4,701 nucleotides of DNA from a virus. Taxonomy: Duplodnaviria > Heunggongvirae > Uroviricota > Caudoviricetes. The notes beneath the pieces are model-generated. The model had not been told where the DNA came from. It did not search any database and was given only the letters and a program-made list of their open reading frames with translations. Shown piece after piece: positions 2,791 to 4,701 of this stretch. The first letter of the stretch is position 1. Each line of letters begins with the position of its first letter. The stretch is taken from IMG/VR virus record IMGVR_UViG_2713896783_000005; one strand, given 5' to 3'. Position numbers and translations under genes: made by a program.

Positions 2791-3104
2791 GTGGGTGGAA
2801 GACGTGGTGCCGGGCGGAAATCATGATACTCCGGCAGTGTGCGGGAACGATGAAGGTAAAAAGCGTTGGCGCACTTATCGGACGAACTGAAGCGGCAGTG
2901 AGAACGAAGGCACGGGAGCTGGGCATCAGCATGATGTTACGTGGTGATTTTCACCCGTCGGCAAAATATTCTCAGCGTGATATTGAGCTGGCGCGGCAAC
3001 TGCATCAGAGAGGCATGCAAAGAAGGGAAATTGCCAGAAAATTAGGCATGCCGCTGCGCATAGTGAATAACTACGTTTATTTCGACAGGAGGGTGTCTGC
3101 GTGA
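2787..3104 (+). CDS. Small DNA-binding protein with two tandem GcrA-N-terminal-like HTH modules; start uncertain (GTG 2787, or ATG 2823/2850)
   Basis: Two repeats of the pattern W/Y-x-x-x-E/D-I-x-x-L...G-x-x-x-x-E-I-A/V...LG ([11 protein letters not shown]...[17 protein letters not shown] and [27 protein letters not shown]), resembling the GcrA N-terminal domain as I recall it. GTG 2787 overlaps the upstream TGA (2788-2790) as GTGA. The track's 2700 start would overlap the upstream gene by 90 nt and is rejected. Confidence 0.55.
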
Positions 3105-3328
3105 AAATCCTGTATCAGGATTACGGCCCGGTGGGGCAGGTGGTTATCAGCAGTACTGTAATGGAGTTTCGGAAGCATAACCGTGTGGTGGATGCTGTGC
3201 TGTTAACCTGTCCGGGGATATCGGCGAGTCGTGCAGGTGTGTTTATTATGAAGACGAAATTATATGGCAGTAAGGCGTGGATAAAGAAGGCGTATCGTGT
3301 AGCGTTGCAGGAGGTTAACAGTGAGTGA
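3101..3328 (+). CDS. Hypothetical small basic protein (75 aa)
   Basis: GTG 3101 preceded by AGGAGG (3087-3092) at 8 nt and overlapping the upstream stop as GTGA (3101-3104); about 11 K/R vs 5 D/E; no family recognised. Confidence 0.5.
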   Translation: MKILYQDYGPVGQVVISSTVMEFRKHNRVVDAVLLTCPGISASRAGVFIMKTKLYGSKAWIKKAYRVALQEVNSE

Positions 3329-3632
3329 AATTAAAGAAATGCCGGTAGTTCGTGACGGATATGGCTACTGGACACATCCTGAATATGAAAAATTCTGTGA
3401 TGGTCGGGAATATATTTCAACGGAAGAGTTTAACGCCTGGATGGAGGAAAATAATCTTCAATACGTCCTCTGCTTCAGAGATGAAGGATGTGCTGACCTT
3501 GATGCGTGTGATGCTGATATTTCTGCATGGGAACCGGAACGACCAGAGGGCGATGGCTGGTTTATTGGTTCCATTCATGATACGGAAGATGGCCCGGTTT
3601 GTGTCTGGTTGCGAAATAAGGCTGAAGCATAA
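3321..3632 (+). CDS. Hypothetical strongly acidic protein (103 aa)
   Basis: GTG 3321 preceded by AGGAGG (3309-3314) at 6 nt; overlaps the upstream gene by 8 nt; about 25 D/E vs 8 K/R by my count, Trp/Cys-containing; stop TAA 3630-3632. Confidence 0.6.
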   Translation: MSEIKEMPVVRDGYGYWTHPEYEKFCDGREYISTEEFNAWMEENNLQYVLCFRDEGCADLDACDADISAWEPERPEGDGWFIGSIHDTEDGPVCVWLRNKAEA

Positions 3633-3731
3633 AGGCGATAAACCAACTAACAACTAAATACTGAAGATTTAAATCAGAAACGATTTTTATTAAATCCTTA
3701 ACCGGAGGGATTCCTGCACCCTCAGAACATC

Positions 3732-3759
3732 AGGAGGCCGCCCGAAAGGGCGGTAAGAA
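3732..3759 (+). promoter_or_regulatory. Structured translation-initiation region: AGGAGG, then a CCGCCC-GAAA-GGGCGG hairpin, then 6 nt to ATG 3760
   Basis: Perfect 6-bp GC stem (3738-3743 with 3748-3753) closed by a GAAA tetraloop; consensus SD AGGAGG at 3732-3737 lies 22 nt from the ATG in linear sequence but about 6 nt if the hairpin forms. Confidence 0.35.
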
Positions 3760-3978
3760 ATGAAACATTATTTAGAAAAAAATTACCCACGAAAGAGCAG
3801 AACAACAGAGTTTCTGTTTTTCATTCTGTTTATAGTGTTGATGATACCGATATCCCCGCTATTACTGGTCTGGATAATTGGAAGGACATTTGAACCAGTT
3901 ATTGAGCTATATACCGATGTGACATGGGAATCATTCAGCGCACTGCACAATAAAATTAATCCGTATAAGGAAAACTGA
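3760..3978 (+). CDS. Small single-pass membrane protein (72 aa), AT-rich moron-like gene
   Basis: ATG 3760; hydrophobic segment FLFFILFIVLMIPISPLLLVWIIG flanked by a basic N-terminus (KNYPRKSR); rare codons (ata, aga, agg, cta, tta) and low GC contrast with neighbours; preceded by a 127-bp AT-rich non-coding stretch. Confidence 0.6.
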   Translation: MKHYLEKNYPRKSRTTEFLFFILFIVLMIPISPLLLVWIIGRTFEPVIELYTDVTWESFSALHNKINPYKEN

Positions 3979-3979
3979 T

Positions 3980-4537
3980 ATGAGCACTATTACCAGAGAA
4001 CGCGCGGAGATTAAATCATACATCACAGGCTTCCTGAGCGACTCGGCGCACGATAACAAGTCTTCAGACAGCCTGCTGGCTAATGTGTTTCGTATCGCGC
4101 TGGCATCACTGGAAGCAGAGCCGATAGCAATGGTAGTGCCTGATGAAATGGATTTGCTTACCTGCCATCTCGACGGTGTAACTAAAACATATGCTGATGG
4201 CTGGAACGCCTGCCGCGTCGCCATGCTTCAGGCCGGAAACTTTCGGGAAAATAAGAATTCGTCAACCAACAATTTTCGGGAAATCTCGGAAACGTCAACC
4301 AGATCTCCGATAACTCTGGATGGCTGGATAAGCTGTACTGAGCGAATGCCTGAAAAGAGCCAGAACGTGCTTATTTCGATGAATATCGATAGCGAGGCTG
4401 GGCCATTAATATATTCCGCACGCTATCTCGGAGGCACGTTCCGGCGCGGAGGTATAGCAGTTAGTCCGGGTAATGATCTTAGGCAAGCAACCCACTGGAT
4501 GTCGCTACCAGAACCGCCGCAGGAGGTGAATCAATGA
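3980..4537 (+). CDS. Prophage protein with DUF551-like C-terminal domain
   Basis: ATG 3980 one nt after the upstream stop, with AAGGA (3967-3971) upstream; C-terminal segment DGWISCTERMPEKSQNVLISM...ATHWMSLPEPP matches my recollection of the DUF551 signature (W...LP...HWMPLPEPP). Stop TGA 4535-4537. Confidence 0.7.
   Translation: MSTITRERAEIKSYITGFLSDSAHDNKSSDSLLANVFRIALASLEAEPIAMVVPDEMDLLTCHLDGVTKTYADGWNACRVAMLQAGNFRENKNSSTNNFREISETSTRSPITLDGWISCTERMPEKSQNVLISMNIDSEAGPLIYSARYLGGTFRRGGIAVSPGNDLRQATHWMSLPEPPQEVNQ
4237..4302 (+). repeat. In-frame imperfect 33-bp tandem duplication inside the DUF551-like gene (encodes NFRENKNSSTN / NFREISETSTR)
   Basis: TTTCGGGAAA at 4241-4250 and 4274-4283, and CGTCAACCA at 4260-4268 and 4293-4301, both 33 bp apart; located at the junction between the N-terminal region and the DUF551-like domain. 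Confidence 0.55.
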
Positions 4538-4617
4538 CCTGGCCTGAAGCATTCACAACGGTAGGAATTGCGATGGCGGTGGCGCTGGTGGTGTATTCGA
4601 TTTGCCGCTGGGGATAA
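4534..4617 (+). CDS. Candidate 27-aa hydrophobic microprotein (MTWPEAFTTVGIAMAVALVVYSICRWG), not in the ORF track
   Basis: ATG 4534 overlaps the upstream stop as ATGA; consensus AGGAGG at 4521-4526 sits 7 nt upstream; single hydrophobic stretch long enough for a short TM helix; stop TAA 4615-4617. Confidence 0.35.
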   Translation: MTWPEAFTTVGIAMAVALVVYSICRWG

Positions 4618-4701
4618 AAACGGTTTGCGGGAAAAGGATAGTTAAGTAGAATTGCTGCGGGTGCTTGAGGCTATCTGCCTCGGGCATGAACACCAACGGC
4701 A

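Follow-up and report, generated by a model that had tools for sequence, protein, structure and literature searches.

A putative hairpin-bridged Shine-Dalgarno cassette at mosaic joints of Escherichia coli lambdoid prophages

Introduction

Translation initiation regions in which an mRNA hairpin bridges the distance between the Shine-Dalgarno (SD) sequence and the start codon are, to our knowledge, textbook curiosities known from two genes of bacteriophage T4. Here we describe a candidate for this kind of site in a 4,701-nucleotide (nt) stretch of Caudoviricetes DNA (IMG/VR record IMGVR_UViG_2713896783_000005), called the window in what follows, which is 100% identical to a prophage of Escherichia coli O157:H7, O26, O121 and other strains. 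The element consists of a consensus SD sequence immediately followed by a GAAA-tetraloop hairpin and, after a short spacer, by the start codon of a DUF4014 gene.

In the split SD site of T4 gene 38 (Nivinskas et al., 1999, as reviewed in PMC3014915), folding of the hairpin reduces the distance between SD and start codon from 22 to 5 nt, and in T4 gene 25 an analogous structure reduces it from 27 to 11 nt; in these systems destabilising mutations lower translation (PMC3014915). The same review bears out the T4 precedent for hairpin-mediated spacing to which a sequence-only reading of the window had appealed. A different type of stem-loop, the promoter-early stem-loop (PeSL) cassettes of T4-type phages, mediates modular shuffling of genes (PMC2839356, PMC4122927). 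On the evidence presented below, we favour, with some reserve, the view that the prophage element is a split, hairpin-bridged translation initiation region which is carried as a portable cassette at mosaic joints. What is new is its setting and its behaviour: prophages of E. coli and Shigella carry the same 25-nt unit by the thousands, it precedes at least six genes that are unrelated to one another, and homology breaks off at its edges.

Architecture and Folding of the Element

Direct reading of the window places the consensus SD, AGGAGG, at A3732-G3737 (+ strand) and, abutting it, a hairpin at 3738-3753 (+ strand), whose 5' arm CCGCCC (3738-3743) and 3' arm GGGCGG (3748-3753) form a stem of six G/C base pairs (bp) closed by the loop GAAA (3744-3747). 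An unstructured A-rich spacer, UAAGAA (3754-3759, + strand), leads to the ATG at 3760-3762, and the ATG is therefore 22 nt from the SD along the linear mRNA and 6 nt from the stem. The sequence-only reading had described precisely this arrangement and had suggested a folding energy calculation, which gives -12.4 kcal/mol for the isolated hairpin and -14.4 kcal/mol when the optional seventh pair, G3737-U3754, is formed; in ensemble folding every base of the stem is paired with a probability of about 1.0 in four different sequence contexts. The surrounding segment of 36-38 nt folds at -16.4 kcal/mol (z = -3.5 to -4.4), and only 0-1 of 200 shuffled sequences fold equally well. Among the 10 perfect 6-bp hairpins of the 4.7-kb window, that at 3738-3753 is the sole one made entirely of G/C pairs, and spacer positions 3755-3757 are predicted to be unpaired with a probability of 0.85-0.98.

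The sequence AGGAGG can form a duplex of -10.3 kcal/mol with the 3' end of 16S ribosomal RNA (rRNA), and no ATG, GTG or TTG is found 5-9 nt 3' of it (3743-3747). Within the spacer between stem and AUG, the sole complementarity to 16S rRNA is UAAG, worth -1.2 kcal/mol. Taken as a whole, the region has a strong SD more than about 15 nt from the start codon, a hairpin lying wholly between the two and, once the hairpin is folded, an effective spacing of 6 nt (6-11 nt across the downstream gene families described below). A search of the window against Rfam 15 gave no match at the gathering score, the best sub-threshold one being an irrelevant eukaryotic element (21 bits vs the 45 required).

Conservation, Spread and Homology Breakpoints

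The prevalence of the element was assessed with an 81-nt query (window 3685-3765) against 5,426 complete E. coli genomes, and 4,340 matching places were found in 2,645 of them, with up to six places per genome. The copies share a leader about 75 nt long with the hairpin at its end. Column entropy, computed over 124 distinct haplotypes, is about 0 bits at 3731-3755, 0.7-0.9 bits at 3689-3730 and 1.5-2.0 bits elsewhere, and exceeds 1 bit from 3756 on; the 25-nt unit made up of the SD, the hairpin and the 2 nt that follow it is, in fact, the most conserved part of the leader. Such recurrence, together with a core entropy of about 0 bits, rules out that the hairpin arose by chance. Within the SD, GGAG (3733-3736) is invariant in 64 haplotypes, whereas G3737 varies (G, A or T), and an A at this position would pair with U3754. 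With no start codon within linear reach this SD could not work in linear form, and yet its GGAG does not vary.

When copies from different phages are aligned, their homology stops on the right side 1-3 nt past the stem; since homology is lost within the first 1-3 nt of the UAAGAA spacer, the spacer behaves as a mosaic breakpoint. The copies occur in two contexts. Those of context A carry a conserved upstream segment of 42 nt (3689-3730), while those of context B have only the core CAGGAGG-hairpin, placed 3 nt past the stop codon of a different upstream gene, and some single phages have both contexts, 1,064 bp apart. As context B lacks 3689-3730, this segment and the SD-hairpin core are separable.

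Among phage records, Rac-SA53, mEp460, ArgO145 and several Stx-converting phages have the element. When one genome of each bacterial species was scanned with a strict pattern, it turned up, apart from chance matches, only in E. coli and Shigella flexneri, and a search of 2.6 Mb of prophage DNA for this arrangement, whatever the hairpin, returned essentially only this cassette family. It is absent from the Rac prophage of E. coli K-12, in which that part of Rac is deleted, and K-12 transcript and ribosome-profiling data are therefore unusable for it. A literature search for the 16-mer hairpin and for DUF4014 found nothing.

Some records at the margins of this distribution are worth mentioning in their own right. 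Rac-SA53 (L003, 2598-3415) has a decayed cassette, in which IS1 is inserted shortly past the start codon that follows the hairpin. In nine viral contigs (e.g. L292, 8288) a stem with an A·C mismatch is accompanied by AGGAGA and followed by unrelated sequence with no nearby start codon. The record PP818812.1 (Actinobacillus phage vB_Apl-pPE4; Actinobacillus pleuropneumoniae) has a leader at 11347-11421 that is 96% identical and a DUF4014 gene at 12350-12567 that is 84.5% identical; this is surprising for a Pasteurellaceae host, and either the phage is a lambdoid phage of the E. coli type or the host assignment needs checking.

Unrelated Genes Behind the Same Hairpin

At least six unrelated genes start 6-11 nt past the stem. 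The DUF4014 gene is found at a distance of 6 nt, with TAAGAA, TAATGA or TAATAA as the spacer, and a DUF7167 gene at 7 nt; two families beginning with MTELTKE follow at 8-9 nt, one beginning with MLTLKH at 8 nt, one with MQEIKEN at 9 nt and one with MGITKERL at 11 nt. Pairwise BLAST found the N-terminal coding regions of these families mutually unrelated, and the start codons annotated in RefSeq agree with the distances given here. Only the MGITKERL family has an SD of its own after the stem (GGAG), the other downstream families having none. A candidate for a seventh family, the terminase gene gpM in the P2-like contig L214, was rejected: the exact match of 23 nt is there part of the coding sequence of gpM (…IQAQEAARKGGNETM…), and no such intergenic hairpin is present in P2, Fels-2 or Klebsiella relatives.

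A natural control is provided by E. coli O18 strain CFSAN067215, in which a DUF4014 homologue is located elsewhere in the operon, without the hairpin, and is preceded by AAGGAG, 6 nt and a GTG start codon. This spacing of 6 nt equals the effective spacing expected from the folded cassette.

Proposed Mechanism

The 127-nt gap upstream of the DUF4014 gene interrupts a chain of closely spaced genes and would, for this reason, require ribosomes to initiate anew. In the mechanism that we propose, the transcript would read through from the early promoter, and the 30S subunit would pair with the exposed consensus SD; the next 16 nt would fold on themselves into the stable GAAA-tetraloop hairpin, looped out of the mRNA path, and in this form, which the ribosome would use, the AUG would have a normal spacing of about 6 nt to the SD. 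Unrelated genes have become joined to the 25-nt unit at 6-11 nt, and the cassette may favour gene exchange by homologous recombination.

The support for bridging is comparative and thermodynamic. That the hairpin shortens the distance between SD and start codon, as the sequence-only reading had proposed, is the explanation best supported by the invariance of GGAG, by the missing start codon within linear reach, by the gene swaps at 6-11 nt and by the O18 control. A further extension of this view, which we put forward only tentatively and consider somewhat doubtful, is that the 25-nt unit is a self-contained, context-insulated translation cassette and, at the same time, a recombination joint of the accessory-gene region in E. 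coli lambdoid prophages. If it were, the pre-folded hairpin would fix the geometry of the ribosome-binding site, and any small gene recombining behind the stem would be translated at once.

The pattern of substitutions in the stem fits an RNA helix of the + strand. C-to-U is the common change, at 3741 and 3743, and leaves G·U pairs in the + strand RNA; G-to-A is much rarer, and the GAAA loop is almost invariant. Stem cells are 97.7% paired, with 20 haplotype cells that keep a G·U pair, nine that are unpaired and one G:C-to-A:U pair, haplotype counts being distinct from counts of independent events. At the pair 3740-3751 the majority of copies have G:C, 23 copies have A·C, seven have A:U and six have G·U, with computed stabilities of -12.4, -7.0, -10.9 and -10.5 kcal/mol, respectively. 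The A:U pair is found on the same flanking background as A·C, which fits a compensating change after a disruptive one.

Several observations weigh against bridging. The copies are about 93% identical, and their structure is no better than that of column shuffles (79-104 of 500 reach the observed values), for which reason the covariation of the stem, read from these alignments, can be taken as suggestive only of an RNA helix. Stems with the A·C mismatch are, with 23 copies, not rare, and full stem stability is thus not strictly required. The consensus SD is partly paired with upstream sequence in some folds, its unpaired probability ranging from 0.02 to 0.8 according to context. Finally, if the stem melted, a duplex of -8.2 kcal/mol with the anti-SD would be open to the 3' arm plus spacer (AAAGGGCGGU), at a distance of 6 nt from the AUG, which leaves room for a hairpin that masks a cryptic SD.

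Alternative Explanations

The last of these points underlies the most serious rival to bridging, according to which the working SD would be the 3' arm (AAGGGCGGU), 6 nt from the AUG and hidden by the hairpin, which would thereby reduce translation, and AGGAGG would only hold a 30S subunit on standby for the time when the stem opens. We regard this as unlikely. The binding of the 3' arm plus spacer to the 3' end of 16S rRNA at -8.2 kcal/mol comes at an ideal linear distance to the AUG, the spacing of 6-11 nt in the swapped genes fits it equally well, and the unrelated viral contig L263 does have a true SD inside a hairpin, CCUCCC-GAAA-GGGAGG; against this, opening of the stem would cost 12.4-14.4 kcal/mol for a gain of 8.2, whereas the exposed AGGAGG offers -10.3 kcal/mol free of such cost, the nearly invariant central C of the 3' arm does not suit an SD, and there is no explanation in this model for an upstream GGAG that never varies. 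In T4 gene 38 the same anatomy serves bridging. An equally low probability is given to a role in RNA stability, in which the hairpin would block 3' exonucleases for the upstream cistrons, or shield the downstream 5' end after an RNase E cut in the A/U-rich spacer, its adjacency to the SD being incidental. The zero-nt junction to an invariant SD, the absence of other SDs for most of the downstream families and the constant start distance of 6-11 nt do not follow from this explanation, even though a very stable G/C tetraloop stem within an A/U-rich intergenic region would suit it well, as would the hairpin of context B, 3 nt past a stop codon; many intercistronic protective hairpins sit just past stop codons. 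Such a role is compatible with bridging, and both could coexist.

The homology breakpoints at both edges of the core, the occurrence of up to six copies per genome, even two copies 1,064 bp apart in single phages, and an overall identity of 93%, which leaves selection little time to show, could also be accounted for if the element were only a recombination linker of recent spread, a homology patch for the exchange of gene cassettes whose hairpin has no function in RNA. We consider this quite unlikely, since it would oblige the downstream genes to have their own SD, which all families but one lack, since the stem shows more C-to-U than G-to-A changes, a bias that, like the A:U compensation, speaks for selection on the + strand RNA, and since the core is far more conserved than the remaining shared leader. 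A protein-binding operator, in which a phage RNA-binding protein (e.g. an N-like arginine-rich peptide) would recognise the GNRA hairpin for antitermination or translational repression, seems very improbable. It has in its favour the almost invariant loop and the core GCCC-GAAA-GGGC, which resembles lambda boxB (GCCCU-GAAAA-AGGGC), and also an upstream UCCUUAAC (3695-3702) loosely similar to boxA. The loop, however, is a tetraloop rather than a pentaloop, the boxA-like string is about 36 nt away instead of about 8 nt and is missing in context B, and the site lies among accessory genes about 3.7 kb from the early promoter candidate, with no N-like gene identified and no Rfam match.

Other identities were tried and discarded. 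A weak terminator, which the sequence-only reading had offered as an alternative, does not hold: in no copy is the stem followed by a U-tract on either strand, the variant tails are all A-rich, and in the window the stem continues into UAAGAAAUG on the + strand and CCUCCUGAUG on the minus strand, which excludes an intrinsic terminator. A lambda-type nut site was set aside in view of the 6-bp stem with a tetraloop, the distance of about 36 nt from the boxA-like string and the position, which is not promoter-proximal. An SD-sequestering hairpin or RNA thermometer was rejected, the consensus SD being outside the stable stem and having only weak upstream pairings without covariation, and a small upstream open reading frame (ORF) ending at the UAA past the stem has no start codon in frame. 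The Pas small RNAs of lambdoid prophages (bioRxiv 10.64898/2026.05.13.724894) are set apart by their description, as they have terminator stem-loops and lie near the lysis (holin/lysozyme) and antiterminator Q genes.

Two unrelated metagenomic viral contigs, L263 and L282, show the same plan, with AGGAG(A/G), a compensated 6-bp G/C stem, a GAAA loop and an ATG 7-10 nt on. Both were left out of the count as not homologous: the site in L263 (10391-10412) is followed by a U-run, hence a terminator, and that in L282 (6245-6266) has unrelated flanks. Their sequences hint that SD-adjacent GAAA hairpins may recur independently in phages.

The Upstream Leader

The conserved segment that precedes the core in context A (AATCCTTAACCGGAGGGATTYCTGCACCCTCARAACAT; 3689-3730, + strand) contains an SD-like GGAGGG, anti-SD-like UUCCUG (3711-3716) and CCUC (3720-3723) and an invariant CCTTAA. 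The sequence-only reading had pointed out here a second inverted repeat, GAGGG/CCCTC; both arms exist, at 3705-3709 and 3719-3723, and only the end, which had been placed at 3722, was off by one. This helix competes with a better one, AAUCCUU (3693-3699) with AGGGAUU (3706-3712), the two being mutually exclusive, and some of the leader helices pair the upstream UUCCUG or CCUC with the real SD. No compensatory change was found in the upstream helices (3693-3712 and 3705-3723) or in the pairing that masks the SD (3711-3716 with 3731-3736), in which the changes are only mismatching or one-sided. The 42-nt segment might add a further layer of regulation.

Operon Setting and Neighboring Genes

RefSeq and Pfam identify the window as an early rightward operon, that of an E. 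coli prophage of the Rac-like lambdoid type. In order, a Cro/CI-like regulator is followed by a YdaT-family gene, an O-like gene with a DnaT domain and iterons, lambda P, DUF1627, a small DNA-binding protein, two hypothetical genes, the gap, DUF4014, DUF551 and hok/sok. The gap of 127 nt located 5' of DUF4014 is the sole long intergenic gap of the operon, in which the other neighbours overlap or nearly abut. On its upstream side lies a hypothetical, rac22-like gene of 103 amino acids (3321-3632, + strand), known from the ORF list and from RefSeq for the identical O157:H7 region and with no Pfam match; then comes the A/T-rich and poorly conserved part of the spacer (3633-3688, + strand; entropy 1.0-2.0 bits), whose sequence depends on the upstream gene.

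The DUF4014 gene (3760-3978, + strand) encodes 72 amino acids with one predicted membrane-spanning segment and matches Pfam PF13198 over its full length (E = 1e-24). RefSeq annotates the identical start codon, and the homologues are equal in length and their N-termini align. The DUF551 gene (3980-4537, + strand; RefSeq, Pfam) starts 1 nt past the DUF4014 stop codon, and its translation is for this reason probably coupled and indirectly dependent on the cassette.

No sigma-70 promoter consensus was found near the hairpin or in the A/T-rich spacer in the window, L093 and L001, and no terminator-like site in window 3000-4701 or in L093. The best candidate for an early promoter (pR-like) precedes the Cro-like gene and is separated from the hairpin by about 3.7 kb. 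With neither signal nearby and the promoter candidate at such a distance, the hairpin is most likely internal to a polycistronic mRNA.

Other features of the window concern regions away from the hairpin. A run of 50 N (421-470) separates two copies of a 217-nt direct repeat (204-420 and 471-687; 96% identical), which takes in the intergenic region before the O-like replication gene together with ~140 nt at the start of its coding sequence. Only one O-like gene is present at the region of the intact O157:H7 chromosome that matches 204-687, and the repeat and N run look like an effect of assembly (a gap from scaffolding, or a join that was collapsed or duplicated) and not like biology. Inside the O-like gene, eight iteron-like GTCACGA repeats with a spacing of 10-11 nt form two clusters (671-709 and 952-1011), followed by a tandem of two AGATAAAGATACAGA (1001-1027), and this is presumably the replication origin of the prophage. 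At the other end of the window, where RefSeq has no annotation from DUF551 up to hok, an ORF of 27 codons (4534-4617; MTWPEAFTTVGIAMAVALVVYSICRWG) has one hydrophobic segment and is a candidate for a small membrane protein. The start codon of this ORF and the stop codon of DUF551 overlap as ATGA, and 7 nt before the start codon there is a consensus AGGAGG (4521-4526). At 4659-4701 the Rfam family sok (RF01794) is matched in part (26.7 bits, E = 2e-4), the match being interrupted by the end of the window, and in the O157:H7 genome the Hok coding sequence is found ~130 nt past that end.

Significance

If bridging is true, it would be in routine use in temperate prophages of about half of the complete E. 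coli genomes, including O157:H7, O26, O121 and O104:H4, and it would supply an annotation rule for start codons that seemingly have no SD. The SD with its GAAA hairpin would also be a compact natural part that sets the geometry of the ribosome-binding site independently of the downstream gene, useful for the design of expression cassettes. The sharp homology breakpoints offer, in addition, a concrete and testable example of short regulatory sequences guiding mosaic exchange in lambdoid phages.

Comparison With Known Systems

Lambda boxB has in common with the prophage hairpin a short G/C stem, a GNRA-type loop and a similar GCCC-GAAA-GGGC core; the prophage hairpin differs in having a tetraloop and no properly spaced boxA, in not being promoter-proximal and in abutting an SD and start codon.

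The site of T4 gene 38, UAAGGAG-AGGGGC-UUCG-GCCCUU-CUAAAU-AUG, is much closer in plan, with a strong SD 22 nt from the AUG, a G/C-rich stem starting from the SD, an extra-stable tetraloop and a short A/U-rich spacer. The folding energies are -16.7 kcal/mol for T4 gene 38 and -16.4 kcal/mol for the prophage element, and the spacers are of 4 and 6 nt, respectively. The two have no sequence homology: in T4 gene 38 an 8-bp stem takes in the final 2 nt of the SD and is closed by UUCG, whereas in the prophage a stem of 6-7 bp adjoins the SD and is closed by GAAA. Moreover, T4 gene 38 has been proven by mutation and is one late gene of a virulent phage, while the prophage element is a candidate site, belongs to an early operon of temperate prophages and precedes at least six unrelated genes. 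T4 gene 25 is alike in that an intervening structure cuts the spacing (27 to 11 nt), with effective spacings overlapping the 6-11 nt found here. Conservation of its structure does not extend beyond close relatives, which points to a recent origin (PMC3014915), and the site differs from the prophage element in lying at an overlapping gene junction, in a single gene, and in not being a mobile cassette.

In its behaviour the prophage element recalls the PeSL cassettes, which are likewise short conserved stem-loop motifs repeated between small accessory genes of unknown function and at which gene gain, loss and replacement break. The likeness is one of repetition and of breakpoints at the motif, and membership in the PeSL class was rejected, since PeSLs combine a sigma-70 promoter and a terminator, whereas the prophage cassette has neither, carries a translation signal and belongs to lambdoid prophages; recombination at the prophage cassette is, unlike that at PeSLs, putative. 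If the 25-nt unit is indeed context-insulated, it would be the translational counterpart of these promoter-terminator cassettes.

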